The notes under the pieces were generated by a model, which made no database searches, had not been told where the DNA came from, and worked only from the letters and a program-made list of their open reading frames with translations. A DNA stretch of 64,000 nt from Tubulanus polymorphus (lineage: Eukaryota; Animalia; Nemertea): assembly GCF_964204645.1 (NCBI RefSeq), contig NC_134032.1:558001-622000 (forward strand). Reading direction: 5' to 3'. Positions within the stretch are counted from its first letter, which is position 1, and each line of letters begins with the position of its first letter. Positions 485-47,015 of this stretch are shown here, piece by piece. The translations under genes and the position numbers were made by a program.

Positions 485-2599
485 TAAGATAAGATAAGAT
501 GAGATAAGATTTGCCTCCTATAAATCCATATTTGCTGCTTACACTCTTAACAAATGGTTCTTCAGGGGATTCTTCACAGAACCTACAGGTTCTTCGCAGA
601 ACCGTTGGCCCTTTGAATTGGTTTTTCACGACTTCGAGGGGAACTTGGTCGTGTAAAAGGTTCTTTGAACCCATCATTTAGTAATGATAGACCATATTTT
701 TTTTAATAGATTTTCCCTCTAGATTTAGAGATAGGGTCCATGTCAAAAACTCGACGAGGAGACACTGACAATTTGCAGCACTGCGTTTATAGTCTCTAAA
801 GATTTACAAGAAGCCCTAAAAAGACACTTTCTAGAACCCTTATTTGGATATATCTTAGGTTTTTCGAAAATCCCCTAGGTTCTTCAATGAACCTTTCATT
901 GCATAAGGGATGGTTCTTTGAGGAACCTTTGTCCGAGTGAATGGGGTTCTTTCAATGGGGTTCTGCGAAGAACTCTGTGGTCACAATATCTAGGAGTCAT
1001 ATAGAAGAGTTTAAGGAAAATAATGTAAACAGTTTGATAGATCAACTGTTTAGATGCTGACACACAAGGCCGGATGTTTGTTTACTGGTAGCGTGCGGAT
1101 TGGCTACCAACAGCTAAAGCGTAACAGATCAGTTTTATCATGGACTCTTAACTCGTTTTCAGAGTCCATGGTTTTATTAATATGAAAGATTGCAGACCAG
1201 CATTTAATCCACTGTTTCAGGATTCCAGTATGTTATCAGTGATAAACATGTTAAACTATCTGAGATTGATAACAGAGGAGCTGTTATTCCTATCAGGTAC
1301 GATGATCTGGGGACCAGCAGTTCAAAGGTTGGTTGACGATAACCTCAGCGGATAGATAACATAGTGACGATCGACTTTTAATTGTCTCTATGTCAACTAT
1401 CCACTGGTGAACCCGGGTTTGACAACTCTTGAGCAACTGGTAGTATTAGATATAATGATCACGCGCGTTAAGTGGTGGACTCTACACATCACGTCAGATA
1501 CATAAAGCGATAAGAGTAAGAAACAGCACTCACTGAGAGTCTATCATATGAACGCTATAATTTAATCCCCCCCCCCCCCGATTCAGGAGACAAAGTTTTT
1601 AAAGGAATATATGCTGCAAGAATATTGCGAATAATATATATATATATATATCAATATTGCGAATCCACTCGATTATGAATGGATTAAAACTTGTCACATG
1701 ATTACATCTGAAGACATAGATCAGTCGCGATACTTTCACATAAGATAGAGTGGAAATTCTGTCTTGAAAGCGCAAAACCTTTAAGGCAATATTCATAAAT
1801 CCTGCCGACATTCCTATAGTATCGGTATCAACCGATATCGGCGACCATATAATCAGAGTTGCTGATAAATATCATCCCAAGGCTGAAAAGCTTTCATCTC
1901 AAAAGACGACGGAATATCCATCCGTTTAAGTTTAATAAACTCACGGATATTCGATAGAAATTTTACCTGTGGAGAATTAAAAGATTTTAAAATCATTTGA
2001 GATCGGAACAATGTTGAGCTCCATGGGAACAAGCTGATGGTAGAAATCATCCTTACAAACTGTCTTACGATTTATGCAAAAGCAACACGATGTAAAACCT
2101 ATAACAAGATGGCGCAGATATTGGAGTAGAGATAATATAGGATGCTACAGGATGGACTAGTCAGCAGAAGGAAACGCAAGACTGGCCAATACGCGCGCGG
2201 CGTTGCACGGGTAGTACTCTTGTCACAATGGCGGCGGCAAGTTCGGCTCCTCCAAGGAAGAAAAGGAAGCATGAAAATGAAACTACTTCGGTCGTTGGGA
2301 CATTGCCCGACGGGGCAAGGGTCGATGGTACAAGGATTTTTTTTGGAGAAGAGAATGAGAATTAATTCCAAAAGGAAAATATTAGTCTCTGAAATAAGCA
2401 ATGACTTTCATAGAGAACAACCCTATAAACAATCAGTCGGACAGGGTCCAGTGAATAAATATTCTGGGGATTTGAATTAATATCGCAGGGCTTTGAATGG
2501 ATGCCATCATGATGTCAAGGCTTTCCTCCACTAAAAATCACTCATCAATAATATCCAGGATAACCTGATCGAACAATTCGCCGGACAAAATAGGGTACG

Positions 2600-3340
2600 G
2601 ATCTTGGAAATGGAATCTGCATTACGTGCTATGAGTGATTTACCTCGGTGCTAGAGGTTTCTGCACAGTATTCTAAGGAGGTACACAAATGGCTGGCCTG
2701 CGTACGGAATCTAATTGATGAGTATCGGCCGATCAATCTAGGACCATCGCACCTAATTTTCCAAAACAATCGGTACAATTCGAGATCTTCCTACGCATTA
2801 TTTTGGATTCACGATTTCATATTCGAATCCAGGGCATTACTATCAAGTGCGAAACGTTCTCTATACGAGGACTGACAAGGCGATATATATCAACGTCAAA
2901 TTTTCGATATCAGAAACCAGCACTATTTTTACCGACTATTCCGTTTCTGCAATGCCCGTGCCGGTCGATGCGCACAATTGCACCTTGATAAAAAACCTTC
3001 CAGACTATATCGGTGTCTCCCATTCTGGTGATTTTTATACGGAATTTAATTCCAAACAATTCCTACAGCGTGAAGGAAAGGGTATTAAAGTCTGTCCCAC
3101 TGCACTGCACTGTTCACGAGCCGTTCCGTCGTGTGCCAGTGGAACCATAAACACATAATGCAATTTTGCGATATAAGTTACCAGGAGTCAGGCTTGTTTG
3201 ACGGGGGGAGGAGAGAGGCCTCTTGGTCAATGGCCTGCCCTGATAAACCTGCACAAGCTTTCCTGTACCATGTGTCTGATACGATTACCATGCGGTTGCG
3301 GAATCACATCAGCCACATTCAAAGTTCAAGTGACGTTTCC
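2600..3340 (+). pseudogene. Degraded envelope (env/F-like) ORF fragment of an invertebrate Ty3/gypsy-like retroelement
   Basis: Joined frames read ..KWLACVRNLIDEYRPINL..YYQVRNVLYTRTDKAIYINVKFSISETSTIFTDYSVSAMPVPVDAHNCTLIKNLPDYIGVS..KVCPTALHCSRAVPSC..IMQFCDISY. The PVP/LPDY and cysteine spacing match my recollection of env-like ORFs of invertebrate gypsy elements. Multiple frameshifts. Confidence 0.55.
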
Positions 3341-3974
3341 ACATGTAACACTACTAGGGATAAAATAAGTAGTAGATTTCCAAATCTAAAGGGGAGATCA
3401 GAGACACAGAGAAATATTTCGTATCCGTTTTCTTCGTATTTCATTGTATTATTGTGCAATCGTCGCTGTTTGTCTCATCGGGATTTTCTTACTAGGAAAT
3501 GAATAATAATATCATAACAGCAGCTACGTATTGTTTTCAACGGTCGTTGAATTATGATCGAGCCCGTATTAGAATTATATCTATTTGAACTCAGTACAAC
3601 CTTAGTTTTGGGTTGCCATAACAAGAATTAGACAAACGCTCGCTGACGATGCAGTCTGGCGAGTGGCTAATATAAGGAGGGTCCCCGAAATCTAAGGGGG
3701 AGATCGGAGACACCAGAAGACGAAACTGGAGAATAGAAATAAAAGCTATATTTTTCACTGGAGAAGAATCTTCATTTACTATCAATAGGATTAGGATGGA
3801 TTGGTCAGTTTTACAGGGAAACGCTAGACTGGCCAATACGCTCGACGTTGCACGGGAAAGAGGGTCGACGCACGCAGAAGTGTACTGTAACGATAATAAA
3901 TACTCAAAAGAAGGATCGAGGAAATTCAGGATTCGAACCCGTTTGTTTTAAGAGTAATTGTTACATCTGTGATT

Positions 3975-6837
3975 ATATCGGCGACAATGTAATCAGAGTT
4001 GCTGATAAATATCATCCCGAGGTAAAAAAGCTTTCATCTCAAAAGATGACGGAATATCCATCGAGTTTTACGCGAGGATATTCGATAAAATTTGACCGGT
4101 GAGGAATGAATGATTTTAACAATGCGTTAAAATCAGCAGAGATCGAAACAATGTTGGAGCTCCCAGGTATAGAATTTTTCTAAGATAATCTTATACAAGA
4201 TTTATTTATTGATGTAGAAATTGAGGCAAGTACAAAAGAAAATGGGGAATTACTATATCGGATGATTTTTGATGATTATAATTTTAAAGAAACACATTCA
4301 TCTGAAGATTTAGATTCAATGATGATGATGAAATTTTAAATGTTCCTAGAGAATTGGATGTTTGTATAGTGCGTAAAGGTAATCTCAAAAGATGACAGAA
4401 TATAAATCAGGTTTAATCAACGCAAGGATATTCGATAGAAATTCAACCTGCGAAGAATTCAAGAATTTAACACTGCATTAAAATCTTCAGAGAACGGAAC
4501 AATATCGAGCTCTATCGGAACAAACTGACCGCAGAAATCATCGACCTGACAATAATACATAGTCAAAAGAAGGATTGTGGAGATTTCGGATTCGAACCCC
4601 TTTGTTAGAAATCAATCGATCTAAAAAAACCATGTTTATGGTCATCGATAGGAACAGGGGAGTTCAGATAAGAGAATGCAAGTGGATGGCCGAAGCAACT
4701 GAAATCCGACGAAGAAAAAATGGCGTATATAGCTGATTTTAAGGAAAGGAAAAGACCTCAACTATGTCAAAAACTAACGCTGAATTCAATGTGGGGGGGG
4801 GGGGGGCAGATGTCCTACTGATTCCCCTGGTGGTGAACACACTAATGTAGAAATACAAAATGATACAAATGGTTTCAGTCCTCGTAGCTACTTGCAAGCT
4901 GCTGCTCAGACGATTGTTTTTGCGTTTTTACAGGCTAACAGACATGACATATCGGCGACAATGTAATCAGAGTTGCTGATAAATATCATCCCGAGGTAAA
5001 AAAGCTTTCATCTAAAAAGATGACGGAATATCCATCGAGTTTTACGCGAGGATATTCGATCAAATTTTACCGGTGAGGAATGAATGATTTTAACAATGCG
5101 TTAAAATCAGCAGAGATCGAAACAATGTTGGAGCTCCCAGGTATAGAATTTTTCTAAGATAATCTTATACAAGATTTATTTATTGATGTAGAAATTGAGG
5201 CAGGTACAAAAGAAAATGGGGAATTACTATATCGGATGATTTTTGATGATTATAATTTTAAAGAAACACATTCATCTGAAGATTTAGATTCAATGATGAT
5301 GATGAAATTTTAAATGTTCCTAGAGAATTGGATGTTTGTATAGTGCGTAAAGGTAATCTCAAAAGATGACAGAATATGCATCAGGTTTAGTCAACCTGCG
5401 AAGAATTCAAGAATTTAACACTGCAATAAAATCTTCAGAGAACGGAACAATATCGAGCTCTATCGGAACAAACTGACCGCAGAAATCATCGACCTGACAA
5501 TAGTACATAGTCAAAAGAAGGATTGTGGAGATTTCGGATTCGAACCCCTTTGTTAGAAATCAATCGATCTAAAAAAACCATGTTTATGGTCATCGATAGG
5601 AACAGGGGAGTTCAGATAAGAGAATGCAAGTGGATGGCCGAAGCAACTGAAATCCGACGAAGAAAGAATGGCGTATATAGCTGATTTTAAGGAAAGGAAA
5701 AGACCTCAACTATGTCAAAAACTAACGCTGAATTCAATGTGGGGGGGGGGGGGCAGATGTCCTACTGATTCCCCTGGTGGTGAACACACTAATGTAGAAA
5801 TAAAAAATGATACAAATGGTTTCAGTCCTTGTAGCTACTTGCAAACTGCTGCTCAGACGATTGTTTTTGCGTTTTTACAGGCTAACAGACATGACATATC
5901 GGCGACAATGTAATCAGAGTTGCTGATAAATATCATCCCGAGGTAAAAAAGCTTTCATCTAAAAAGATGACGGAATATCCATCGAGTTTTACGCGAGGAT
6001 ATTCGATCAAATTTTACCGGTGAGGAATGAATGATTTTAACAATGCGTTAAAATCAGCAGAGATCGAAACAATGTTGGAGCTCCCAGGTATAGAATTTTT
6101 CTAAGATAATCTTATACAAGATTTATTTATTGATGTAGAAATTGAGGCAGGTACAAAAGAAAATGGGGAATTACTATATCGGATGATTTTTGATGATTAT
6201 AATTTTAAAGAAACACATTCATCTGAAGATTTAGATTCAATGATGATGATGAAATTTTAAATGTTCCTAGAGAATTGGATGTTTGTATAGTGCGTAAAGG
6301 TAATCTCAAAAGATGACAGAATATGCATCAGGTTTAGTCAACCTGCGAAGAATTCAAGAATTTAACACTGCAATAAAATCTTCAGAGAACGGAACAATAT
6401 CGAGCTCTATCGGAACAAACTGACCGCAGAAATCATCGACCTGACAATAGTACATAGTCAAAAGAAGGATTGTGGAGATTTCGGATTCGAACCCCTTTGT
6501 TAGAAATCAATCGATCTAAAAAACCATGTTTATGGTCATCGATAGGAACAGGGGAGTTCAGATAAGAGAATGCAAGTGGATTGCCGAAGCAACTGAAATC
6601 CGACGAAGAAAGAATGGCGTATATAGCTGATTTTAAGGAAAGGAAAAGACCTCAACTATGTCAAAAACTAACGCTGAATTCAATGTGGGGGGGGGGCAGA
6701 TGTCCTACTGATTCCCCTGGTGGTGAACACACTAATGTAGAAATAAAAAATGATACAAATGGTTTCAGTCCTTGTAGCTACTTGCAAACTGCTGCTCAGA
6801 CGATTGTTTTTGCGTTTTTACAGGCTAACAGACATGA
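3975..6837 (+). repeat. Direct tandem triplication of a ~950-bp mosaic unit (3975-4948, 4949-5895, 5896-6837)
   Basis: Each unit starts atatcggcgacaatgtaatcag and ends caggctaacagacatga; copies are near-identical with small indels. Confidence 0.95.
4672..4800 (+). pseudogene. Protein-primed family-B DNA polymerase fragment (Polinton/Maverick/adintovirus type); also at ~5620-5750 and ~6566-6695
   Basis: Translates ENASGWPKQLKSDEEKMAYIADFKER..QLCQKLTLNSMWG: the ASGWP..EEK..YI segment plus the KLxLNSxWG polymerase motif B, with an internal deletion. Confidence 0.75.
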
Positions 6838-7270
6838 TTATCAAATTTTCGGGAATTGTTTGAATAAAGGGTTTGCACTTTTTCATTCGACACAAACTGT
6901 AGATATTTCTTGGACCTCTCGGATTAAAGAAAACATATCTATTAGTGCTGGGTACTAGTTTTATATCAAAATCAACAAGCAAATCATCTTTGGGATTATA
7001 TAATTTTCGGGAATTATTTGAATAAAGGGTTTGCACTTTTTCAGTCTACACAAACTGTAGATATTTCTTGGACCTCTAGGCTAAAAGAAAACATATCTAT
7101 TAGTGCCGGGTATGATCGAAAAATTAGAAGAATTCAATGAATTCCTGCGCAGATCAGGAAAATTATTCTCGTTTAAAAAATTCCAATTATTGAGTTTATC
7201 ATTTGCTAATGTTATTAAACATTTGAATGAAATCGAGAAATCGCACCAAGACACTTTGAATTCGTTGGTT
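6835..7270 (+). pseudogene. Fragments of an uncharacterised helical protein family (variant 1; two partial copies)
   Basis: IFGNCLNKGFALF..DISWTSRIKENISISAGY..KKFQLLSLSFANVIKHLNEIEK; homologous by eye to 14882-15350 (IIFGDCLNRRFLMF) and 15602-15880 (KFQLLSLTFVDVVKYLPEIEK). Confidence 0.55.
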
Positions 7271-7654
7271 CATTTTCCCAGACCCTAAATTTAATGGTAA
7301 GCGCCCCAAATACCGAGGATCATGACCCTAACCCAATAAATGGAAGACGGTGATAGTTGGGTGGGCCGGGTTGACAAGCTAGGGGTAGCTTTATACTAGG
7401 GTGTCCTTGAGACGGAGCCGAAGGCGAAGGCCGGGGTCAGCGCCACCAGGTGGCTGACCTAATTCCCCGTGACCCCTCCGCGTCGCAAAGGTCAAAGGTC
7501 ACCCCCGGTTCACTCCCCGATGTCAAAGGGTCACGTGGAGGTGGAGCCACCTACCAAGGTCACGCCCGCCAGCGCCACCCAAGGTCAACCCACCCTTCGA
7601 AAGCCCCCCCAAGGCCCCTAGCAAGCCTTTGGGGGCAGGAGATAGGGGGGGTGA

Positions 7655-8406
7655 CCTTCACGGACAAGCGGGGTCCGGCAAAACGCTTTTAGGGAAGATA
7701 TTATTCCCTAGCAACATAGCTTCAATGATGCCGACTGATAGCGAGGGGGTGGGTGCCTGCGAGATGAGCACGAGACATCGCATATTTAAAGTCGATGATG
7801 CGGGTGACTCGTTTTGGAATAATAGCCGCATCCTTTCCATGGTGCTCGCTATGTTTCAATCGGAGTGGGAAGCGAAGGTGCACAGCACGAAGCAAAAGAA
7901 CCAAGCGTGCGTCACCTTCGTAACCACCAATGAGAAGACCCCCCTGCAACGCTTTGCGGGGGCTGTTGATACAGAGGCGGTGGAGAGGAGGTTCCTAGTA
8001 GTTAAATTCAAGGGTCAGATGAAGACCAATCGATTTAGGGCCCGAGTTATGCGAGCAGGTATATGTAAAACTGATTGAAAGAGCTTTGCTCGGTAGTAAT
8101 TTATTACAGATCAATACGATAAATTCACAGACAATGTTGTTACCACGCATGAATTAATGAGACAGTATGAAATAGAAAAAGAAATGGATACCGAATCAGA
8201 GGGGGGGGGGGGGGGGGGCAGAAGTTGAAATTGAGCCACCTGTTGTAACATTTCAAGAGCCTGAATCATTACCACAGGCGCAGGATATTGACATGCAACA
8301 GATTAATGCTATGTTAGAACAAATGGAAGCGAATAGAAACAGTTCGGAATTAACGGACTCTGTATTAAATGAAATTTTTGATTGGAATGTAAACAATGAT
8401 CAATAA
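7655..8406 (+). pseudogene. Parvovirus NS1/Rep-like SF3 helicase, C-terminal half (endogenous viral element)
   Basis: Walker A GQAGSGKT, Walker B KVDD, motif C VTTNE, Arg finger AVERRF. Continues after frameshifts into an acidic tail ending ..FDWNVNNDQ* (TAA 8404-8406), which overlaps AATAAA. Confidence 0.8.
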
Positions 8407-8529
8407 AAATATGATATAACTGTATTTCAATGTGTTGACCAAGTTAATTCGGATCGAGAAAAGGTGGGCCGGGTCGGCCGAGAGGAAAACTTTATACTAG
8501 GGAGCAGAGGATAGAAACAAAGGAAGGAC

Positions 8530-8592
8530 CCGATCCACTATGCATGGGAAGTAAAGAAGTGGGCCATGGACCAGATCCATGTTGATTTTGAC
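8530..8592 (+). pseudogene. Very short Ty3/gypsy-like integrase fragment
   Basis: With two small indels it reads PL.AWE..SGPWTR(I)HVDF, the PW.RIHVDF motif containing the first catalytic Asp of gypsy integrases. Confidence 0.45.
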
Positions 8593-8954
8593 GATATCTT
8601 GATTCATCTTAAATCAGGAAATAATATCACAAAAAAGAAGACGGGTATTGATAAGCAAAGAACTGAGCGAATATACCGCCGACTCCTGAATTGGCAATCA
8701 AAAAGCTATACTGTGGATGGAGTGGACCACGCAATGTACGGCGTGGAGATACTCCATGTCCCACATAAAGATGTGGAAGAAACCAGGATCGTCTATTTCC
8801 CTGGTGTTCGCTCCCTCATCATTCCATAAAGGAGCGAGGTGGAAGACATTCGAATGTTCTACGGCGCGAGTGCGGTGAACAATCTTGCAAATGTGATCAA
8901 TATATCGACAAAATATACGGGGTTCACACAAAACAATACGAACGTGATTCGTAA

Positions 8955-9677
8955 GTGGAAAAAAGACTTCGCGACATTACCACCGTTTTTAATTCATTGA
9001 TGGTGGGGTCGGCCGTCATGCCCGCAGCATTACGTATTCAGGTAGGAAAACTCGACGTGATGAGAAATCTAATCCCCGAAAGTGTTATCTTAAAAAAAGG
9101 AACGCCGATGCCGTGTACGTTGACGGCTTTAACGGACGATTTAACCGGGGGTCAGTTAGGGACGATTCGCGCTAATAGATTACGTTCTCTCAACTCGATC
9201 GCGAAAGAATTGGAGTCAGACGTGATTTTAACGAAAGCATCCGAAAAATTAATCTGCATGAACCGGGTGCAACTAGACAGTTCACCGGCGGAGGACACTG
9301 TCGACAAAGCCGAGCACACACGCCATTGGAATATCGTGAACGGTCTTTTCCCTCCAGCGTTTTATACCTGTTTATTTGGCGAACTGTACAATCCGGGCAT
9401 AATTACAACAGCCCATAAATTCTATGCAATTACAAATGTTTGTTTAAACTCGTTTCATCGTGAGCACGGGTTACAAAACCTAATCGACTTTCTGCGCGTG
9501 TTGGGTAAAAAACACAACAATAAAAAAACATCGAAAAAGGAATGTATCGCGTGGCACCGTCGAGACCAAGAAGCAATTTCACAAAATGCTTTTGACTGTT
9601 CTACCAGCGAAGAATGGTCCGACGCGTCATTGGACAGTGTTATTATCGGGCAACAACCTAATATTACACGTTTTTGA
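8955..9677 (+). CDS. Orphan intronless ORF (240 aa), probably from a DNA virus
   Basis: Long open frame with no introns, tightly packed tail-to-tail with 9788-10258; no family recognised; the 5' start is uncertain. Confidence 0.4.
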   Translation: MEKRLRDITTVFNSLMVGSAVMPAALRIQVGKLDVMRNLIPESVILKKGTPMPCTLTALTDDLTGGQLGTIRANRLRSLNSIAKELESDVILTKASEKLICMNRVQLDSSPAEDTVDKAEHTRHWNIVNGLFPPAFYTCLFGELYNPGIITTAHKFYAITNVCLNSFHREHGLQNLIDFLRVLGKKHNNKKTSKKECIAWHRRDQEAISQNAFDCSTSEEWSDASLDSVIIGQQPNITRF

Positions 9678-9787
9678 CTCGCTACTTATTTTATTTGTGC
9701 ACTTATGTTACAATGCGCGCCAGGTTACTGGTTGCATGTTGTTTTTTGAATACAATTATTACATACGTATATGATAATGAAATTTTT

Positions 9788-10258
9788 TTAGTTACTTTTT
9801 GTTTTACGAAAGTACATGTCTAACCAGTACAGCCAAATAAGAGTCTTGTAGTCAGTACTAGTATATTTACGGTCAGATATTTCATGGGTGTCTGGATCTT
9901 CCGATAACCACCGAAGCGAATACATGCCCCCCGTGTAGTATATATGGTGCGGCGCTAGTTCGCGTACAAATTGTGTTCGCTCTTCATCGTCCGGGTAAGC
10001 GGGGTCTTTAATTACGCTTACCCGATCTTCGTGTATTTCGTCTAAGAAATCGTCTACGCACCCAATATTTAAACGATGTAATACCGGGCACAGTTGTTGG
10101 CACAATTCTACATATACGACCAACCAGTGTTGTCTCTCCCATTCTCGGATCATAATATCCCAAAGGTTTGACGCCAACACTTTAGAATCACTCTGCAAGT
10201 TGTCTTCCCCCTTTTTTATAACCTCCAGCACGGTATTTGAATATGTAATATTAGCCAC
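9788..10258 (-). CDS. Orphan intronless ORF (156 aa), probably from a DNA virus
   Basis: Open frame convergent with the 8955-9677 ORF across a ~110-bp gap; no family recognised. Confidence 0.4.
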   Translation of the reverse strand: MANITYSNTVLEVIKKGEDNLQSDSKVLASNLWDIMIREWERQHWLVVYVELCQQLCPVLHRLNIGCVDDFLDEIHEDRVSVIKDPAYPDDEERTQFVRELAPHHIYYTGGMYSLRWLSEDPDTHEISDRKYTSTDYKTLIWLYWLDMYFRKTKSN

Positions 10259-10339
10259 GCCGCTGAAGGTTACTATTCGAATCGTCTAAAAGTATAATGA
10301 AAAGCGTGTACACGCTGAGAGGACATGCGTATAACGGGC

Positions 10340-11407
10340 CGGAAGTCCGTACTATCTCATACCTTGTAACGTGATGTCAGGAACTCATTGGGTCCTACTT
10401 GTAGTCGATAAAAATACAAGTAGGGTCCACGTCACGGACAACCTGGCTGACGTAGATACAAAGAAAACTGTGATCGAATACTTTAGAAAATACAATAACA
10501 CCGGATAAAAACTGGACTTTGCAGTTTATACCAGAAATTGTTGGTAAGAACCGGGTATTCCTGTGGTAACCTGGCTAACGTTGACACAAAGAAAACTGTG
10601 ATCGAATACTTTAGAAAATACAATAACACCGGATAAAAACTGGACTTTGCAGTTTATACCAGAAATTGTCGGTAAGGACCAGGTATTCCTGTGGTAACCT
10701 GGCTAACGTTGACACAAAGAAAACGGTATTCGACTACTTTAAAAAAAAACAATTTCTCATCGGATGAAAACTGGACTTTGCAGTTCATACCGGAAATTGT
10801 CGGAAACGACGGGTATTCGTGTGGTTTGTACGTAGTACGAAACGCGGATAGATATATGGGAAATGACACCTCCCATATATCGCAAGCACAATATTATAAC
10901 GATAGTTTGTATTTCGATAAAGTTGATTACTTTATCGAGACTATCGAGAGTCATTCAACTTTAAACTCAAGTAGCAGTGACTGTATTTTACTGTCGGACA
11001 ACTCTACCTATTTCAAAAATGATACCGACAGTGAAATTTGGATGAAATATGGAATGACTGTAACCAACTACGCAGCGCCACTGGATCGATGGGCTGCGGG
11101 CGTAGATCGGGGTTCACGTCACGAAATTTATGAACAATATAAAAGGGAAGTATATTTTGCAACACTGCAGGAGCCCATTGTACAGCATGTTCATACTGAC
11201 ACTCACGAAACACCAATTTCTGATGATGTAATCGATGTTGATTCAGATCCCGATGATTCCGATGAAGGTATTGTTGGGATGTCGGACTCGGACTTTCAGT
11301 ATGAACGTAGTGTCCAATTATTTAAGAAAACAAAGAAAAAGGAAAAATATTTCCCTGTTAACCGCATATTTAGACTCGCTAAAAAGTCAAAGAATGAAGA
11401 AGTCTAA
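10340..11407 (+). pseudogene. Ulp1/C48-like (clan CE) cysteine protease, disrupted by an internal 128-bp tandem duplication
   Basis: YYLIPCNVMSGTHWVLLVVDK..VHVTDNL..NDGYSCGLYVVRNA gives the His, Asp and Cys catalytic motifs. Repeat units start at 10441, 10569 and 10697. Acidic then basic C-terminus. Confidence 0.7.
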
Positions 11408-11819
11408 TTAATATTATGGAGTTGTATCCTGTTTCACAGTCAAATTGATAAATATAAGTGCAATCTGTTTGGGATAGTTTATTCCTTATTTCATTAAGAT
11501 TATTTTGGGAAGGATATCTATATTTTATGTCGCTAGTAGGGAAATCTATATATCGTTCGGTAGAAGACAAGGGAAATGATCAGAGATTGATGAGGCTAGA
11601 ATTAGACTTTCATGATTTGAAAAATCCGCACTTATATAAATGTTGTAAATCAGGGTAGCTGTAGTATGTGTAACCCGAGTGGGTCTTAATATAGTTGGGA
11701 TCAAATTTAAATTCATTTTCCGAAATTCAGCTGTATTTTTATGAGTATGTATTTTTCAGAAGGTCTAAATTTTGGTTCATGTCGAGAAGCCAGTTGAGCT
11801 ACTTCCCGCACATGGGAAA

Positions 11820-12345
11820 CCCAAGCCAACCTTGCCCTTTTCTATGAAATCAAGTAAGCGTCCAGCTGTGGCAACTAATATATTGCAGCCTGCCACTACA
11901 TTTCTTAGTTGATGGCCAACAGATGCACCTCCATAGACTACTACTGCTCGCAAAATGGTGCCGATAGCAAACTTTTACGCCTGCTGGTGTATTTGGATAG
12001 CCAGCTCCCTGGAAGGAGCCACAACTAAACACTGTGGCTCCTGAACCTGGCTAAAGGCTGAAGATTCCAAACCACTGCCGATCATAGCTGTTATAATTGG
12101 GAGAAGAAATGCGGCCGTTTTCCCGATCCAGTTTGCGCGCATACCATCATATCACGGCCATTCATGATGATAGGAATTGAATATTTCCGAACTGGTGTCG
12201 GTTTGTGGTATTTTGCTCTTTTAACATTTTGCATACACCGATCGTAGAGCCCTGCTTGCTCAAATAACTCGATTGGCGCCGGTTTATTCGTACCGCTTAC
12301 TTCCACCGGTATCTTATCATACTTATCAAAGTTGATACTAGCAAT
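11820..12345 (-). pseudogene. vasa: Intronless (processed) vasa/DDX4 DEAD-box helicase fragment
   Basis: INFDKYDKIPVEVSG..KPTPVRKYSIPII..GRDMMVCAQTGSGK/TAAFLLPII..SAFSQVQEPQCLVVAPSRELAIQI..A*KFAIGTILRAVVVYGGASVGHQL..ILVATAGRLLDFIEKGKVGL. One-base frameshift after GSGK, in-frame TAA, no introns over ~525 bp. The QEP, (R)KF and INFDKYD motifs favour vasa over PL10. Confidence 0.85.
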
Positions 12346-12633
12346 GCAGCATGGCTAAGAACAGCAATAGATTGGGACTTGAAACAAACGGACAAAGACA
12401 CACGTAACGGGACAACATACACGGACCCAGACTTCCTGACACAGAAAATGAGTTATAGACAGTACGACTTGGGAAGGGGAACAATAACCATGAACATACC
12501 GACATCGGTATTAAGGAGCGAAATAACGGACAGTACAGACCCGACTAAAGTAATTAGGGCAGTAGACATAGGGAGAAATGACAGTTGGTACGACACGGCC
12601 TTCTACCCACAATGGAATAGCGACTATTCCATG
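12346..12633 (+). pseudogene. Orphan A-rich coding fragment, possibly parvovirus-like capsid
   Basis: Open frame AAWLRTAIDWDLKQTD..YDTAFYPQWNSDYS, Thr/Asp/Tyr-rich; abuts vasa on one side and an env piece on the other. The capsid call is a guess. Confidence 0.25.
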
Positions 12634-12859
12634 ACTGGAATAAAAAACATTAAAAACATTCACCACTTGATCTCTCATCTGCGAGATACCTATTCTGCAT
12701 TTTAGCTGCGGGACTTTTTGTGGGATGGTTTCCCAAATAAGAAATATAAAGGCAATCACTATTTTAGGACGCTAGTTGATTTCCAATATAAGTTAAGCGC
12801 GTTAGTCCACATTTGATACGGGAATTGTAATTTACAGTTTTGGTAGATGAGAACATTGA

Positions 12860-16505: not shown

Positions 16506-16591
16506 TATCATATATATATCATTATTAATTTCAAGAACTGTTATTTATCAAGTGTGTATCTGTATGAATTTTATGATATATCTTCTTTGTT

Positions 16592-19500: not shown

Positions 19501-22500
19501 CTGCTGATAATGTATCAGACACGAAGGATGCGGAAATCTTGCCGACTAAGAACGACATCAAAACCAGAATTACCGAGCTAAATTAAGGGCAGAGACCATC
19601 TGATGAGAAGCGAACAAGTGTATTTATTATCTTGAAAACCTATTAACAATAATGATATTAAATATTCAGCATCATATGAATTCGTCAGAAAGTCTAGATA
19701 AAGTGTAGCGCAGGCATTAAAATGTCATTAGTTCAATCAATGAAAGTTTTACGGACTAAGATAAATTGATGTAGGCGAAATTTATACATAACAGAAACAT
19801 AAATAAAGCAGTACAGCAGATTTTAAACAGAATTTTTGAGACAATTTTTGACCTCATTTCGTTGTATACATCGCGTTAGAAATCATCGGCAATTTCCGTC
19901 GATCTCCGTCCAGTTTCGAGGGAGGTAGTAACTATAAATACTGTTTGGAAACATGGCCCCACGATCAGTAATCATCTGGACTCCTAACGACACAGAACTC
20001 AATATTATTTTGTCGCCGTGCGGTAAATGAGTTTCGTATTACACAATGGAAAATATTACCAGTTATCTCGACTTGTTAACGGGTACCGAGTTGATGGATA
20101 CTGACGAGTTCTTTACGGTCGATATTGTCGATACGATAACGGACTTTGATAACGGACTTTGATTTAACGCAATTTCAAACAATGCTCGAAAACGAAGGTG
20201 AGACTGGGCTGATACTCCCAATGGTGATACACCAAACGCATTTAACCGAATACGATTCACCCTACAATCAACACATATTGGACACGATTATAGACAAGGC
20301 GTTGTTATTACACTTCGAGAACAACTTAACCCCACAAGTGTTGTATGAGTTCGATTCTAATACGGGGCCCTCGCATATGAAATTTTTAACCATGTACGAA
20401 AGGGCTGTTAAACAAACATATCAAGAGGCTGTTGATGACAAGTCTACCGATTCGAAAACATTTACGATCACGGATTTTTTGCAGAAATTAAAACGAGAGG
20501 TAAACAAACACACAAAATCTCGAAGCAACTACGGTGACATATGTGGGGATACACTACAAAAGGTAGCCACGTTTATGCAAGCGTTCATACCGGGATGTGA
20601 CAAATTGACACTAAATAAAAATACCGTGTCCGGTTTATTCGATCAACTATTGAAATTAGCCCATACCAAAGAACGTGTCTGGCATTTGTTGATGTATGGG
20701 ATCAAAAATTGCGTCTTAGAAGAAAACAGCGTACACGAAAAAGCCCGTAATCTATTAGGTTTCGGGCTCTGTAAATTTCGCCTCTTTTCCGAAAACTAAG
20801 GTCTCCAGCCGACTACAACGGGTATCACGGCAAATCATTTAATGGCGTTAAGTAGGGATTATTGCGCCATGTTAGCGTTCAATTTCGAGGTTTCATCGTG
20901 GTGGTACGCGGACAAAGTGTTACACCTCTTACCGATCGAAATAGTCATGTGGGATGTATTTCGGTCGGGAGGGGAAATGGACGCCGTACTGACATTTGTT
21001 ACCGCGTACCATCAGATGAAAATCGACATTGTTGATGAACACCAACACGAACATTGGCATTATTGTCATTAACTGGAGACAGTGAACATTTAACTTATTT
21101 ATCGCTTTATTATTTATTGCTTATCGTTTGGAAATATATATATATATGAAACCAGCCTCTGAAGATGACGATATACAAGGTCTGCAGTTAAACATTGCAA
21201 AATGAACCATTTTTCGTGGAATCTAGTGACATCAGCGACGATGAGGGGAATCAGTCGATAAGTCACTCCAAATAAGGGCACCGGTAGATGCCAGTGCTAA
21301 TCTTTTGAAAATTGTCTCTTCCGTCTCTGAACTTGTCTCTTCCGACGACACGAGCGAGACAAGGGAAGCTGACAGGGAAGTTGATGAACAACCAGTTGAC
21401 AAAAATATAACAAAGGCGTTACCTTCGGGATTTGATGCTGAAATTAACGCTCGACTAACCGGCGCGATTGAAGGCCTATGAGATGAAGGAACGATTGCGG
21501 ACAACATCGGCACAAAAGTCGAGCGATTTATGCGGTGTTGCATTGAAGAGAAAAAACTTATTTCGAAGTATGAACGAGTTCTGGGGGAATCGTCGGCGAA
21601 AGGGCATACGGAGATTTCATTATTCGGTTTTACTATCGACTACTTTCGCAACGCTAGGTTGATCTGGTTACATGCTAAACAGGGGGTCGAATTACAGCCA
21701 GAATTATCTAGTAAATTATACGTCTGCTGCTGATAATGTATCAGACACGAAGGATGCGGAAATCTTGCCGACTAAGAACGACATCAAAACCAGAATTACC
21801 GAGCTAAATTAAGGGCAGAGACCATCTGATGAGAAGCGAACAAGTGTATTTATTATCTTGAAAACCTATTAACAATAATGATATTAAATATTCAGCATCA
21901 TATGAATTCGTCAGAAAGTCTAGATAAAGTGTAGCGCAGGCATTAAAATGTCATTAGTTCAATCAATGAAAGTTTTACGGACTAAGATAAATTGATGTAG
22001 GCGAAATTTATACATAACAGAAACATAAATAAAGCAGTACAGCAGATTTTAAACAGAATTTTTGAGACAATTTTTGACCTCATTTCGTTGTATACATCGC
22101 GTTAGAAATCATCGGCAATTTCCGTCGATCTCCGTCCAGTTTCGAGGGAGGTAGTAACTATAAATACTGTTTGGAAACATGGCCCCACGATCAGTAATCA
22201 TCTGGACTCCTAACGACACAGAACTCAATATTATTTTGTCGCCGTGCGGTAAATGAGTTTCGTATTACACAATGGAAAATATTACCAGTTATCTCGACTT
22301 GTTAACGGGTACCGAGTTGATGGATACTGACGAGTTCTTTACGGTCGATATTGTCGATACGATAACGGACTTTGATAACGGACTTTGATTTAACGCAATT
22401 TCAAACAATGCTCGAAAACGAAGGTGAGACTGGGCTGATACTCCCAATGGTGATACACCAAACGCATTTAACCGAATACGATTCACCCTACAATCAACAC

Positions 22501-24281
22501 ATATTGGACACGATTATAGACAAGGCGTTGTTATTACACTTCGAGAACAACTTAACCCCACAAGTGTTGTATGAGTTCGATTCTAATACGGGGCCCTCGC
22601 ATATGAAATTTTTAACCATGTACGAAAGGGCTGTTAAACAAACATATCAAGAGGCTGTTGATGACAAGTCTACCGATTCGAAAACATTTACGATCACGGA
22701 TTTTTTGCAGAAATTAAAACGAGAGGTAAACAAACACACAAAATCTCGAAGCAACTACGGTGACATATGTGGGGATACACTACAAAAGGTAGCCACGTTT
22801 ATGCAAGCGTTCATACCGGGATGTGACAAATTGACACTAAATAAAAATACCGTGTCCGGTTTATTCGATCAACTATTGAAATTAGCCCATACCAAAGAAC
22901 GTGTCTGGCATTTGTTGATGTATGGGATCAAAAATTGCGTCTTAGAAGAAAACAGCGTACACGAAAAAGCCCGTAATCTATTAGGTTTCGGGCTCTGTAA
23001 ATTTCGCCTCTTTTCCGAAAACTAAGGTCTCCAGCCGACTACAACGGGTATCACGGCAAATCATTTAATGGCGTTAAGTAGGGATTATTGCGCCATGTTA
23101 GCGTTCAATTTCGAGGTTTCATCGTGGTGGTACGCGGACAAAGTGTTACACCTCTTACCGATCGAAATAGTCATGTGGGATGTATTTCGGTCGGGAGGGG
23201 AAATGGACGCCGTACTGACATTTGTTACCGCGTACCATCAGATGAAAATCGACATTGTTGATGAACACCAACACGAACATTGGCATTATTGTCATTAACT
23301 GGAGACAGTGAACATTTAACTTATTTATCGCTTTATTATTTATTGCTTATCGTTTGGAAATATATATATATATGAAACCAGCCTCTGAAGATGACGATAT
23401 ACAAGGTCTGCAGTTAAACATTGCAAAATGAACCATTTTTCGTGGAATCTAGTGACATCAGCGACGATGAGGGGAATCAGTCGATAAGTCACTCCAAATA
23501 AGGGCACCGGTAGATGCCAGTGCTAATCTTTTGAAAATTGTCTCTTCCGTCTCTGAACTTGTCTCTTCCGACGACACGAGCGAGACAAGGGAAGCTGACA
23601 GGGAAGTTGATGAACAACCAGTTGACAAAAATATAACAAAGGCGTTACCTTCGGGATTTGATGCTGAAATTAACGCTCGACTAACCGGCGCGATTGAAGG
23701 CCTATGAGATGAAGGAACGATTGCGGACAACATCGGCACAAAAGTCGAGCGATTTATGCGGTGTTGCATTGAAGAGAAAAAACTTATTTCGAAGTATGAA
23801 CGAGTTCTGGGGGAATCGTCGGCGAAAGGGCATACGGAGATTTCATTATTCGGTTTTACTATCGACTTTCGCAACGCTAGGTTGATCGGGTTATATGCTA
23901 AACAGGGGGTCGAATTACAGCCAGAATTATCTAGTAAATTATACGTCTGCTGCTGATAATGTATCAGACACGAAGGATGCGGAAATCTTGCCGACTAAGA
24001 ACGACATCAAAACCAGAATTACCGAGCTAAATTAAGGGCAGAGACCATCTGATGAGAAGCGAACAAGTGTATTTATTATCTTGAAAACCTATTAACAATA
24101 ATGATATTAAATATTCAGCATCATATGAATTCGTCAGAAAGTCTAGATAAAGTGTAGCGCAGGCATTAAAATGTCATTAGTTCAATCAATGAAAGTTTTA
24201 CGGACTAAGATAAATTGATGTAGGCGAAATTTATACATAACAGAAACATAAATAAAGCAGTACAGCAGATTTTAAACAGAA
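16592..24281 (+). repeat. Tandem array of a ~2.22-kb unit, 3.4 copies (starts ~16605, 18847, 21071, 23297)
   Basis: aactggagac..ttatttatcgc recurs every ~2225 bp; copies differ by SNPs and indels; the last copy is truncated at 24281. Confidence 0.95.
17807..18848 (+). pseudogene. Orphan virus-like gene (reconstructed ~341 aa); further copies at ~20046-21072 and ~22272-23298
   Basis: Acidic N-terminus, intronless, TATAAA at ~17694. Copy 1 has +2 and +14 bp insertions; copies 2 and 3 have a different frameshift and a TAC>TAA stop. Confidence 0.6.
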
Positions 24282-26159
24282 CACAGAAATCTTCTTGTGG
24301 TTAGTTTGTCGCAAAGCCATTATGATGCAGAGGACAGAATTAATTAAATATCCACGTCATTATGAATTATTAATTGCTCATTATAAACATATTATATATC
24401 CGCATTGTATTTAAATCAATATTGTTTTCAATCCTAACCTTTCACTTCACTCGCGCTGGTAATTTGGACTTTGTTCTACTGACGTCTGCCATTGTCTAGT
24501 GGAGCAATATTAATTCATGTCACTCTATTCCTTGCTCTCTTTCTCTCTCTATATCTCATTCAGTATTTATAATAAATCAACCATTAAATTATCATAACAT
24601 CGTTTGTGTTTGGTGACCTTCTGAGCTAGTTCCAGGTATCAATGGGAAGTTCTACTGGCAAGCGGGAAGAGGAAATTCAACCTTTGCTTGGCTGACCACC
24701 AAGTCGAAGGGATATAATGTTGATGGAACAACAAAAAGTTGGGAAAAGGGGTTACTTGGTATTGACACAAAGGCAAATTTCCCTGGGAGGCACTCGTCAA
24801 CATCTGACCAAAATTATTGAATAACAGCCACTCAACGCGTGTCTCCCTCAATTCATATTATCGATTTGTTATAAATTTAGTAACCTTGGTACTGACCAGA
24901 ACAAATACAGCCCTCTTTGGAACGAATGAAGCCATCTGGCACAGTAGAACAAATGGGGCTGGGATAGGCCAGTCAGTACCAAAGTGGGAGACTCGAGACT
25001 CGAGACTTGAGATTGAGAGCTTACACACGACTCATCGGACGGAACACGCGGGAAGAATAAAGAGAATAAGATATACTCAATCAACTGTTTTTCGTTTGAC
25101 TTACATCGTATTTCTGAGGAAGGAAACGCAGAGTCGACCCCCGGAGAGAATTACTCGAACACGGGAGAACAACTCGCTCAAAAGACAACCCGTTTCACAT
25201 ACATTTGAGCGGAGCCCTTCGCTCAAAACCGCACGAATAAGTTCACGCTAGAACTGGACTTTCGATTGACATAATCAAATTAAGACGAAAAAAAAACTCT
25301 CGGCAAAATTTATTAAATGCACTCCATGACCATTATTACCCAACTTCATTATTATTTTCAGATGTGGATAAATAATAAGAACAAAACGACGAATAGCGGC
25401 AAGCAGCGAAATCAATCGAGAGTCGGCCTGAAGAATTCTCGGAAGGCTTCGGGCTATCAGAAAGTTCTGTTCTGAAATGTTCTTGAGTGAGTTGACCCGG
25501 CGTAGCTGCAGCAGACGTGTTTACTCATCACAAATCTACATTGCCTGTTTATTTCTTATCTTAGATTGTGATGAAAATACTGAGGTCGGAGACCTAATGG
25601 GTGAATCGGCAAAGCACTGGCAGAGATGTCAGCTGAAGAGAAATTAAAATACAAGCCAGATCCCAATCAGGAGTTATCAGAGGCCGGTGAATGAATATTC
25701 CAGGGGTTTGAATTAACTCTTTATTAGAAATTTGGGGTAATAGCTGAAACTTGCTACTAGGTCACTGTGTCATTTAACTATTATATAACTTTCAACATGG
25801 CAGTTCATGTGAGTATGTGACTGAGGTATTAGGTAATATTCACCAAACAATATACTCAGATCAAATAATGATATATACTATTTATTGACCACATATGTTT
25901 CTGGGAAATTAGTTGTTCAAACAGGGCGCATTGTTATTTTACGTAATACTTGGATTATTAATGAAATAGGGGAATTTTGTGTTTAAACTCGGTCATCAGC
26001 TGTGGTCAAAACAGACCCCGGCATATAAGGGGGACACATCGATTGTGGAATAGACCTGGACTGACTGTCGACCCTACAAGACTAAAATACTGTTGTTATA
26101 AGTAAAAGCCACAAATCATAACTTAACAGAGTTGTCAGAGTTTTCTCGACAGTAAGCAC

Positions 26160-26495
26160 CTATCAAAGTGGAAGACTAGAACCGTTACAACTGGTACCAT
26201 CACCAGTCCGAACTATCCAAACAACTACAATAACGACCTGAACTGTAACTGGAGGATTGAAACACCTGAAAACAGGGCTGTTTTTTAAATTCTACCACAA
26301 ACTGAACTGTAGATGGATGATTAGAACACCTGGAAACAGGGCTGTTTTTTTAAAAATTCTACCACAAACTGAACTGTAGCTGGACGATTAGAACACCTGG
26401 AAACAGGGCTGTTTTTTTAAATTCTAACACAAACTGAACTGTAGCTGGACGATTAGAACACCTGGAAACAGGGTTGTTTTTTAAATTCTGACACA
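26160..26495 (+). repeat. Third CUB fragment plus the ~63-bp CUB-derived minisatellite
   Basis: GTITSPNYPNNYNNDLNCNWRIETPEN followed by ~4 units similar to those at 16.1 kb. Confidence 0.8.
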
Positions 26496-28024
26496 AAGGC
26501 CTTTAATTATAAATTTCCCTGGGAGGCAAGTGTCACCACGTGTCCTGCTTGGAACTAATGAAGCCATCTGCCACAGTAGAACAAAGGGGGCTGGGATCTG
26601 TATAAATAGGCTGATCAGAGCCAGAGTGGGGGAGAACTGCTCATTCTGAGACTTACCGCTAGAAATTAGACAGAAAACTAACATTTGGAAACACATCAGT
26701 TTGACATGGATTAAGTCTAAGACTAAATTCTTATCTCAAGTAGTTAAACATGGTTAGATGGCCTATCTGACGATGACCTATGCAATGAAATATAAAGAGT
26801 AATTCAAGACATTTGACTTACCAAAAAATAACAATATTTCATAGATGTAACATAATGTATCTATTTTAAATAGTTCACGGTGAGTTCTGGAACTCGACTG
26901 AGGTTTCAACTCTAGTTTGGGTCCCGACATCGATTTCCCCAACCCACCGAACAACAACGCCGATTGGTTGAACACAGGCAGAGCTCGAGCCCTGATAGGT
27001 CAGCTAGGGTCACCTAGGGACCCCAAAATATAAACAGAACACAAACTGCGTCTTTTAATTACTCATTGTTAAAATAGTTCTGGGGTCTCAACCAGAGACA
27101 ATACAGGTGAGAGTATGAGCAGAGACAGGCGTTGTCAACTGCCATACTCAGAGACCGTCACAAACTACATAATTAATAAATCTAACTTTTGATACAATAA
27201 CATTTTACATAATCAAAAACTCAGATATCTTTTCCTAAGATGATTGGATACTAATATTTCGATACGATTAATATATATAATGAAGGTAATGATTATATCG
27301 ACCGTCTTAATCCCATTTGTTACATATATATTGGAATCTTCCCGATCTTCCCCAGTTTTTGTCTAGTCGATCATCGCTATTCGATACCTCTACACTCACC
27401 CGGGACCAGTCGGTTGTAATCGTTCCCGTATATTTTTACGAAACTTGGACAGTTTTTTCACGGATTTAAATAAGATCATCTCTATCTGACCTAATTCGAA
27501 CCAATATATCATTATTATTTGTGTATTATACATAATTATAGCTTCGCCTGGTTATATCTGATATATAGAAGATCAGCTAAATAGCTTACAGTGAAACATA
27601 TGCTCCGGAAATTTGAGCACATATTTGAAACTCTACATTAGTAAATACGGACTTCGTGATTAATCCAGATGGTCATTGTTTTGCCATCGTGGCCTTCGTG
27701 ATCATCAAGTAATCCAGATGGTCATTGTTCAATTGACGTGGCCATCTGAGAGTATGAATACGCTTGTCGTGGACTCATTCTCTGGTTCTCTCTCTTGTTC
27801 TAGACTCTCTTGTTCTAGACTCTTGTTCTAGCTCTCGCAACAGCTCGGTTGGCTCAATAAACTGAATTAACTAACAACCACATTTCTTGTCAATTCTCTG
27901 AGCTAGGAATTTCACTACGGAACCCTATATCATATCTAAGCTACAGTACAGTTAATCATGTAGACCTAATGGATGTTTTTGATATGTTTAAATTAGCTTC
28001 GTTAGTCGAGTCATCTTGTATCAC

Positions 28025-28168
28025 GTAGTTTGAAAGTCGGAAAAACTGGGTCAAGGGCGATCAACACAAAGGTAGTTTGCAAGTAGGAAAAACTGGGTCA
28101 AGGGCGATCAACACAAAGGTAGTTTGCAAGTAGGAAAAACTGGGTCAAGGGCGATCAACACAAAGGTA
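28025..28168 (+). repeat. 47-bp tandem repeat x3
   Basis: gtagtttgcaagtaggaaaaactgggtcaagggcgatcaacacaaag starts at 28025, 28072 and 28119. Confidence 0.9.
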
Positions 28169-28738
28169 GAATAGAATTAAGACGCATGATCGTGAACCAC
28201 GATTTTCCAAACGGAGCTAAAAAGCTCTAAACACGATTGCGAGGAGGAACGTTTTTAAACTATAGGGCCTAGGACGAGCAGAGAAATCACTTACATCGCA
28301 AATACCGCATCTATTCCTTTGGAACCAGCTTCAACTACTAGACATTTGTGCAAAAACGATCAACTAAATCGGCCCACTAACAGTTGGATATTCTAACTGA
28401 TTAAAGCCCTTGATATCGATAATTTCGTGAACCCTTTGTACACTTCCAGTCTATCTAAATCACAAACACAAGTTCTCGGCTATGGTCTCAATTCCGCGTT
28501 TTACCAGAAACGACACCTTTCGGTTTTTTACAACGCAACTCGAATACCAAGACCGCGACGGCATAATTACGGTTTTATCTACGAACGCATGATTCATTTC
28601 GGACCAACTCAAAATTCGGTACAATCGACGAGCAATTATCTCGAGATAAGATTGAGATAATTGCCCGTATATACTGAGAGGATAGTATCAATTTAATATC
28701 CACGTCATTATTCAGCTGTCATTAAAAACACATTATGT

Positions 28739-28740
<2 letters not shown>

Positions 28741-28806
<66 letters not shown>
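28741..28806. repeat. (TA)n microsatellite
   Basis: Perfect TA run. Confidence 0.95.
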
Positions 28807-28811
<5 letters not shown>

Positions 28812-29509
28812 ATTGTAATTATATTAAAATCAATATTGTAATTATCTCTTTATGATCGTCTGCCATTGTCTAGTGCCTTTATCTCTTGCTCTCTTTCTCT
28901 TTGGGTTTCGGTTCGATAATAGATCAGGCTTTAAATTATTACAATAATCGTTTGTGTTCGGTGAAATTGGTGACATTCTGAGAGTTAGTTCCTGATAACG
29001 CGGCACAATGATTACTTAGTTCACATTGTACCGACCTCGACCTCCGTGATTATTCACGTGACACAAATGCATATAGTTAACCGGCCGGGAGGCACGTGAC
29101 ACCACGTGTTACAATCCAACCGATATTATTGATTTCAGTTATATCGCAATCACTATAAGGGGCGTGTCTCTAAATCTAGAGACTTTGCCACTGGCCAGAA
29201 CAAATGTAGCCCTAGCTCTCTGGAATAAATAAAGCCATCGGTAACAGCAGAACAAAGCGGGGTCTGTATAAATAGATTAGACTTAAACCCGGGTTTATTG
29301 TACTATGGGATAGGAAATGCATCGAATACCAGTCAGCTCTGAGAGTCGACAGCATTACCTCATGCAGAGCCAGCGAAAGAAGATAACAGAAATAGATTCT
29401 GAATCATCGTCGCTGAATTCTTGCATAAATTTCCTGACGAGGAAACAGCCACTGATTGTGTTCGCGGAGAAAATCAACTGAGTTTTTACATTGAATAATG
29501 TGGACTACC

Positions 29510-46926: not shown

Positions 46927-47015
<89 letters not shown>

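Follow-up and report, generated by a model that had tools for sequence, protein, structure and literature searches.

A transcribed, haplotype-variable block of co-oriented parasite fragments beside an EBAG9-like gene of Tubulanus polymorphus: a putative uni-strand piRNA-cluster-like archive

The window analyzed here is a stretch of 64,000 nucleotides from the nemertean Tubulanus polymorphus (assembly GCF_964204645.1, contig NC_134032.1, positions 558,001 to 622,000 of the forward strand). Its left half holds a block of 28 kb composed of virus-like, transposon-like and host-derived scraps, and to the right of the block lies a host gene that we take to be EBAG9, for which no Pfam match was obtained (Table 1). 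A first-pass annotation had described the block as a candidate PIWI-interacting RNA (piRNA) cluster-like antiviral memory locus. With moderate confidence, we interpret it as a uni-strand piRNA-cluster-like archive, i.e., a transcribed, haplotype-variable collection of co-oriented parasite scraps, whose membership among piRNA clusters is putative and unproven. Compared to the first-pass annotation, support is now stronger with regard to transcription, its likely direction and polymorphism, and weaker with regard to the number and identity of the sources.

The block is flanked by inverted-repeat elements at 60-482 and 30613-30929, and on the right it passes into a 72-bp array that stems from the final long terminal repeat (LTR)-like piece. 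Self-comparison revealed two recent tandem duplications with copies 95-98% identical, and the orphan family of the 947-bp unit recurs at 1835-2051. The extra tandem copies amount to 7.3 kb, or 26% of the interval, which leaves 20.4 kb of non-redundant sequence. Here, we identified 282 stop-free open reading frames (ORFs) of at least 38 aa, 279 of which were searched against Pfam, while three (TA)n ORFs were dropped. Matches at E <0.01 comprised Ulp1 (10335), DEAD-box (11780-12354, minus strand), CUB (12897 and 26127) and a weak VapE/SF3 hit (7473), in line with the earlier statement that no intact host gene is present. Tool-supported sequence added up to approximately 4.1 of the 20.4 non-redundant kb (about 20%). 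The “dozens” of pieces from unrelated parasites originally proposed were thus overstated, given this duplication, the small identified share of the remainder and the donors shared among many pieces: one gene contributed two halves, a single multi-copy family recurs, and the LTR-like and CUB pieces number three and four, respectively. Rfam and tRNA scans gave 0 matches each, scans of viral contig collections recovered no relatives, and an Atlas search returned only weak, incoherent matches; per-strand counts of poly(A) signals and splice motifs were uninformative.

Table 1. Features of the window; positions count from its first nucleotide.
Feature	Position	Strand	Remark
Whole collage block	1560..30064	+	Co-oriented fragments; ordinary DNA rich in miniature inverted-repeat transposable elements (MITEs) on both sides
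Presumed env/F-glycoprotein-like scrap	2757..3500	+	Cysteine pattern, hydrophobic tail; broken by stops and frameshifts
947-bp unit, three copies	3975..6837	+	Copies 95-98% identical; holds orphan family and PolB-like scrap
Parvovirus NS1-like superfamily 3 (SF3) helicase fragment	7659..8235	+	Protein search; relatives beside PLA2-bearing capsid (VP) gene
Presumed integrase-N-terminal-like scrap	8515..8997	+	177 bp deleted in other haplotypes
Orphan gene family, C-terminal part	8955..9674	+	Relative P0038, 553 aa; profile positions 320-520
165-aa orphan ORF	9791..10285	-	Convergent inside same donor block
Ulp1/C48 protease-like gene	10335..11404	+	PF02902, E 1.4e-4; broken by 128-bp duplication (three copies)
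Probable long interspersed nuclear element (LINE) apurinic-endonuclease scrap	11549..11755	-	Directly 3' of vasa piece on minus strand
Host vasa (DDX4) coding scrap	11825..12342	-	Frameshifted, probably intron-less; Pfam DEAD; best PDB matches vasa-like
145-aa orphan ORF	12268..12702	+	Sequence only
CUB-domain scrap	12848..13006	+	PF00431, E 1e-8
Scraps of unnamed family	13668..15950	+	Related pieces at 6836-7285
Related CUB scraps	16031-16345, 16397-16505, 26168-26497	+	Paralogy; two with 64-67-bp arrays
~2226-bp unit, 3.5 copies	16592..24281	+	Copies 97-98% identical; carries N-terminal part of orphan (P0038) family
Three or more related, presumably LTR-like scraps	24300..29333	+	Paralogy; TATA, poly(A)-signal and primer-binding site (PBS)-like motifs
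Predicted minus-strand splice acceptor, best-scoring of window	30557..30580	-	Top percentile of 3210 AG sites (simple score)
Exon 2 of minus-strand RNA, 42 nt	34349..34390	-	Ends at strong donor (99.7th percentile)
Overlapping first exons of EBAG9-like mRNA (+) and minus-strand RNA	34533..34761	.	Probable bidirectional promoter
EBAG9-like host gene, coding exons	35719..38590	+	Spliced RNA contig; flank, outside archive

The viral component of the block was analyzed by a protein search in which one frame (7473-11072, stops written as X) was compared to 1.84 billion representatives. This search retrieved 43 proteins, 41 of which matched the stretch 7659-8235 (best E 6.6e-37, 44%). As Pfam Parvo_NS1 did not match this stretch, the assignment comes through its relatives: next to the relatives of one NS1-like match (P0011), a capsid gene with a parvoviral PLA2 domain adjoins at 22 loci (PF08398, E 1.7e-7, for the capsid gene at locus L001). 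Because of this adjacent capsid gene, we identify the piece, by sequence similarity, as an NS1-like fragment, which agrees with the parvovirus-like SF3 helicase of the first-pass annotation. It is a fragment rather than a full NS1, since the NS1 profile matched at positions 269-397 only; further, the VP profile gave nothing significant in the block, and neither did a PDB search with the NS1 profile. The relatives are of interest in themselves. L001:1-3692 and 21 related loci are multi-copy parvovirus-like elements with NS1-like genes 63-100% identical; upstream of NS1, and in the same orientation, they carry the capsid gene with the PLA2 domain. Host transposon sequence adjoins some of them, and the family resembles an expanded endogenous densovirus-like family missed by Pfam Parvo_NS1. 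Another NS1-like relative, P0006, is an ‘uncharacterized protein’ of the tunicate Styela clava and probably represents a further endogenous copy.

The remaining two of the 43 proteins hit the orphan gene piece at 8955-9674, the longer one being P0038, which also matched an ORF inside the ~2226-bp repeat (36% identity, E 2e-44). When both window pieces were placed on the profile, the repeat ORF occupied positions 45-317 and the other piece positions 320-520, so that they are complementary parts of one gene family, found 8 kb apart and in swapped order. This arrangement shows that shuffling has taken place and that the pieces are not all unrelated. Three sequences of the P0038 family were found outside the window; its predicted fold was of low confidence (predicted local distance difference test, pLDDT, 39) and gave no Foldseek match, and we infer a viral origin for the family. 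No relatives were retrieved in a protein search with the 165-aa convergent orphan, and the Ulp1-like protease named in the first-pass annotation was recovered by Pfam. A capsid identity considered for the 145-aa orphan was dropped, as PDB, viral-contig, Atlas and profile searches gave it no support and its predicted fold was unusable (pLDDT 36).

The stretches 8955-11404 and 16592-18834 resemble parts of one multi-gene donor and share a high CpG observed/expected ratio of 1.3-1.6; in the flank the ratio is 0.99, a value that speaks against a vertebrate. The resemblance of these stretches, together with the DNA polymerase B (PolB)-like scrap recognized by its motif, would be expected if the block were a single decayed composite element, such as a Polinton/Maverick, a Helitron or a large endogenous DNA virus, that had itself captured the pieces and the gene layout of which would account for the co-orientation. 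We regard this explanation as quite improbable. Among the 25 longest of 159 inverted-repeat pairs, none was a pair of long terminal inverted repeats bounding the block, and searches for Pfam PolB, integrase, ATPase and capsid domains, also expected of Polintons/Mavericks, gave no match. Moreover, the two donor gene halves are swapped, scraps of host cDNA stand among parvoviral, LTR-like and LINE-like ones, and the block is near single copy with haplotypes that differ in content.

Orientation within the block was highly uniform. All 31 block-internal paralogous high-scoring segment pairs (HSPs) were direct, compared to 131 of 173 in the right half of the window (Fisher p=5e-4, for HSPs that are not independent and fall into about 11 families). 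Independently of these pairs, purines prevailed on the plus strand in 31 of 39 500-bp bins of the non-redundant block vs. 31 of 69 bins of the right half (Mann-Whitney p=8e-5), and the skew changed sign at both known minus-strand pieces, vasa and the convergent orphan. The first-pass view that nearly all pieces are sense on the plus strand was therefore borne out by HSPs and purine skew; it had missed a third minus-strand piece, the probable LINE scrap (recognized by motif), which brings the exceptions to three, namely vasa, one orphan ORF and this scrap.

Aligned with the expressed mRNA, the vasa scrap shows 22 differing bases among 515 and a single indel (approximately 96% identity). An RNA contig of 1861 nt aligned to it unbroken, while the DNA runs broke at 12117: the mRNA form at this position was never observed in the DNA runs (0 of 7 reads in X5 and 0 in X1), and parent-type X1 contigs end there. 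Since the mRNA alignment is unbroken where the DNA records break, the scrap has likely lost an intron, and would hence derive from cDNA capture. Of all the pieces, this one alone matches an expressed host mRNA at 96% identity, and it lies in the opposite direction. Guides produced from a minus-strand precursor would be sense to vasa and thus harmless, while those from a plus-strand precursor would match an abundant germline mRNA. The orientation of vasa therefore favors transcription of the minus strand, and we infer from it that orientation may be under selection.

Reads and contigs were placed on 6850-16590 (9.7 kb of the 28-kb block) and on a control stretch (32990-37270), and copy number was measured by read depth only. 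In a second sample (X5), raw DNA reads covered 30 of 30 block bins with a median depth of 9.3, as compared to 9.7 in the unique flank. None of these bins exceeded 150x (maximum 113), in contrast with 14 of 30 control bins (maximum about 6900), in line with the MITE depletion noted at first sight; the only clearly multi-copy sequence within 6850-16590 was 14650-15950. The listed contigs of DNA run X1 were identical to the window letter for letter. Depth in this run was 14-18 over much of 6850-11933, compared to about 30 in the unique flank, which indicates that one haplotype carries this sequence. In another haplotype, 10349-11541 (1193 bp) is replaced by 412 other bases, and in other haplotypes 8576-8752 (177 bp) is deleted at a 7-bp microhomology. 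The polymorphic fragment content anticipated for such a locus was thus observed.

These data also bear on whether the block is an assembly artefact or a contaminant chimera, which we consider very improbable. No record spans the whole 6850-16590 stretch, which lies between the two tandem arrays and ends short of the EBAG9 junction. However, the DNA contigs match exactly, all bins are covered in the second sample at a depth close to single copy, fragment junctions are bridged by RNA contigs, and there is 2-5% divergence between tandem copies. By its coverage, the block is not a simple mis-assembly. In the parts tested, orientation was not random, and the block was neither one intact element nor a plain mis-assembly.

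Transcription was monitored in run X2, which was recognized as RNA by its splice joints. This run is mRNA-like: one contig connects exons of the EBAG9-like gene across GT..AG introns, no unique coverage falls within the introns, and depth is 0 in 6 of 30 control bins. RNA from X2, which also holds vasa mRNA at a depth of 415, covered 28 of the 30 block bins, mostly at a depth of 10-39 in unique bins. The lowest bins (10425-11399) coincide with the segment missing from the alternative haplotype, a further empty bin lies at 13025, and no RNA-only joint was seen in the block among the rows shown. RNA depth climbed leftward, with rho -0.70 over 24 of 30 bins when six multi-copy bins were dropped (DNA depth, rho +0.49), and rho -0.90 over 19 of 30 bins when five haplotype-gap bins were also dropped (DNA depth, rho 0.09); contig depth is a crude measure here, and bins share contigs. 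This gradient is consistent with a poly(A) RNA of the minus strand that shows 3' bias.

The promoter region of the EBAG9-like gene provides splice evidence for such an RNA. One RNA contig carries plus-strand GT..AG introns together with a minus-strand intron, seen as a 142-bp gap with CT..AC ends (joint 34390-34533, side 42) that was present in X2 only and absent from three runs of DNA type; read in the minus direction, the gap corresponds to a GT-AG intron that includes a pyrimidine tract. About 148 nt of the contig were not shown mapping in the examined stretch, and the minus-strand RNA therefore likely splices further to the left. The top acceptor, 0.5-1.3 kb outside the block, is, by its sequence, the predicted entry point of the precursor. 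Reading frames through 11 candidate acceptors did not exceed 70 aa, although exons beyond the window could add to them. The minus-strand RNA and the block RNA may be one molecule that starts at the EBAG9-like promoter. In sum, the long minus-strand transcript predicted initially gained support: RNA from the block is present in a run that expresses vasa, and the evidence points to the minus strand. In the vicinity of the promoter, the DNA-like run X3 showed patchy coverage with a local rise at 33848-34133, just upstream of it.

The opposite direction was also considered, that is, plus-strand read-through from a gene left of the window, the small RNAs of which would be sense to parasites and antisense to vasa, as in Drosophila AT-chX. 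The leftward-rising depth fits a decay from a left promoter as well, and, as far as the accessible portions of the sources go, read-through drives Aedes clusters (bioRxiv 2022.08.22.504762) and vasa-antisense piRNAs exist in Drosophila (PMC6486647). However, guides approximately 96% identical should cut vasa mRNA, yet this mRNA is abundant in the very same run. Further, the sole splice evidence near the block is on the minus strand, and the library looks poly(A)-type, with depth rising toward the 3' end. We hence judge this direction improbable.

Alternatively, the block could be a neutral graveyard situated in a minus-strand long non-coding RNA, or in a minus-strand gene as part of its long intron or 3' tail. 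Sense insertions would have been purged from it for their splice and poly(A) signals, which would bias orientation with no small RNAs involved. Antisense bias of intronic insertions is well established; in addition, the minus-strand RNA might continue into downstream exons to the left of the window, its first exons open a short reading frame, and tandem duplication inflates the orientation pattern. On the other hand, RNA depth was 0 in the unique DNA just downstream of exon 2, compared to about 10-39 in the block, which therefore is not a plain intron. A graveyard should also gather MITEs, in contrast with the high-copy bins counted above, and it leaves the concentration of rare, foreign-looking scraps unexplained. 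We consider this alternative unlikely, albeit the main rival of the archive.

We favor a putative uni-strand archive that would be built as follows. Pieces of parasite DNA or cDNA, and occasionally of host cDNA such as vasa, would have been inserted and then modified by microhomology-deletion trimming, shuffling and tandem duplication, all three of which are observed in the block. A minus-strand precursor would be transcribed from the EBAG9-like promoter, with the block as its long unspliced last exon, and might be processed into 1U piRNAs antisense to the captured virus and transposon genes, silencing cognate RNAs. Selection would keep parasite scraps antisense, tolerate vasa only in the non-targeting sense orientation, and keep out MITEs, the guides of which would hit host transcripts. 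In a broader version, which we put forward tentatively and ourselves think doubtful in its entirety, the locus would be a compact, broad-spectrum immune archive hitchhiking on the divergent promoter of a housekeeping gene. It would record DNA viruses as shuffled, orientation-filtered scraps, among them a multi-gene virus so far undescribed and represented only by orphan proteins; vasa cDNA would survive only in the harmless direction, and the differences between haplotypes would amount to a heritable, allele-specific antiviral memory outside insect and shrimp models.

Several observations weigh against the archive. With regard to orientation, same-strand paralogues can arise by old tandem duplication instead of independent oriented insertions, and two pieces, an orphan ORF and the probable LINE scrap, would run in the same sense as the precursor. 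With regard to content, no more than about 20% of the non-redundant sequence could be named, most scraps lack a close copy elsewhere in the genome by read depth, and a single piece is tied by tools to a virus family. As the orphan genes have no known source, the terms ‘antiviral’ and ‘large dsDNA virus’ of the first-pass annotation went beyond the data. With regard to transcription, the evidence comes from one RNA run of one study over 9.7 of the 28 kb, another RNA-like run (X7) yielded one short contig only on the block, RNA contigs carry no strand information, the leftward gradient also fits plus-strand RNA decaying from a left promoter, and no read joins exon 2 to the block.

Mammalian pachytene piRNA genes are not known to be parasite collages. 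Nonetheless, seven such genes in mouse and seven in human are paired with an mRNA on a divergent promoter according to the accessible part of the source, and these pairs resemble the arrangement proposed here in having an mRNA on one arm and a long non-coding RNA on the other (PMC7782496). They favor long first exons (PMC7782496), in contrast with the two short first exons found here, where the long exon would be the last. The following comparisons likewise draw on the accessible portions of the papers cited. The Aedes aegypti flamenco-like cluster of endogenous viral elements (EVEs) holds transposon and virus fragments on one strand and gives rise to a long opposite-strand transcript (PMC7161354). 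Aedes clusters share with this block one-strand fragments and polymorphic gain or loss of viral pieces (PMC7161354; bioRxiv 10.1101/2022.08.22.504762). They differ in that they contain mainly RNA-virus EVEs, use their own promoter or upstream-gene read-through and have demonstrated piRNAs, whereas this locus, known from DNA and long RNA, has a parvovirus piece plus orphans and an apparently divergent housekeeping promoter; it is also smaller (28 kb vs. 143 kb for the Aedes cluster). Drosophila flamenco and flam-like loci show a fragment strand bias opposite to transcription, with a discrete promoter and a spliced precursor, as proposed here, but the bias of flam-like loci stems from Gypsy and flam-syntenic loci are cited at 227-1085 kb, compared to mixed content mostly without close genomic copies here (PMC10643416).

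DNA-virus EVE piRNAs already have precedent (PMC6085071, PMC9357335). In starfish and sea anemone, parvo/densovirus-like EVE piRNAs indicate antisense transcription of invertebrate parvoviral sequence, as proposed here; that study drew on small RNAs and was unable to test for integration (PMC6085071). EVE clusters of IHHNV in shrimp are allele-like and consist of scrambled fragments as in the present block, but come from a single virus, in contrast with many sources under one apparent promoter (PMC9357335). Drosophila AT-chX likewise places a vasa-derived piece inside a piRNA source, as in this putative one; its guides are antisense but mismatched, sparing vasa, whereas the copy described here is approximately 96% identical and, on the best reading, sense (PMC6486647). 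For mollusks, piRNA clusters of 2.7-17 kb have been reported, and this anatomy is not among the features described in the accessible part of that study (PMC11067994). A literature search, conducted at the level of titles and listings and with most subscription papers outside its coverage, revealed no mixed locus of this type outside insects and shrimp, and a search of the same coverage linking EBAG9 with piRNA found nothing. If confirmed, the archive would allow a direct test of whether invertebrates retain DNA viruses in a heritable piRNA memory, an idea put forward on the basis of small RNAs from starfish and anemone (PMC6085071). It would be a small, mappable locus with a candidate promoter, a splice junction and polymorphic alleles, in which one could test whether orientation is selected and for which the vasa scrap is a natural self/non-self control. 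It would also sample viruses that are otherwise almost unrecorded, as illustrated by the three other sequences of the P0038 family, the viral origin of which is presumed.

Several scraps were named by motif resemblance. These comprise the piece at 2757-3500, which we take to be env/F-glycoprotein-like from its pattern and which gave no match in PDB, Pfam or protein searches; a short, internally deleted scrap, presumably of protein-primed PolB (approximately 4672-4806, copy 1 of the 947-bp unit; no Pfam match); the presumed integrase N-terminus (8515-8997) and the presumed LTR-like pieces (24300-29333) and Penelope-like scrap (about 28397-28657), none with a tool match; and the piece at 11549-11755, which we assume to be a LINE apurinic endonuclease and which was not matched in Pfam or PDB searches. 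The pPolB, env, integrase and LTR/PBS calls of the first-pass annotation consequently had no tool support.

One CUB segment has been captured or copied four times (73-93% identity). Its source may be a host gene or a parasite; if it is a host gene, minus-strand guides would be antisense to it.

The segment 14650-15950 is not a unique relic; by read depth it belongs to a multi-copy, highly expressed family (approximately 4-12x single-copy DNA depth, RNA depth up to 1840), which is a candidate live target. In addition, 178 reads contained a back-jump of about 704 bp, and joins between 15347 and 6905 connect this segment to the related pieces at 6836-7285, so that the family may be a live tandem or mobile element.

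Finally, long G or C homopolymer runs occur at or near fragment junctions and internal deletions (1567-1579, 4793-4806 and its copies, and 8201-8218) and vary in length among tandem copies. In the right half of the window, introns and intergenic DNA are rich in minisatellites with periods of 20-75 bp (37278-37825, 38983-39465 and 42259-55818), two families of which recur, one of them at both 47777 and 55107 and the second at both 38983 and 48915.

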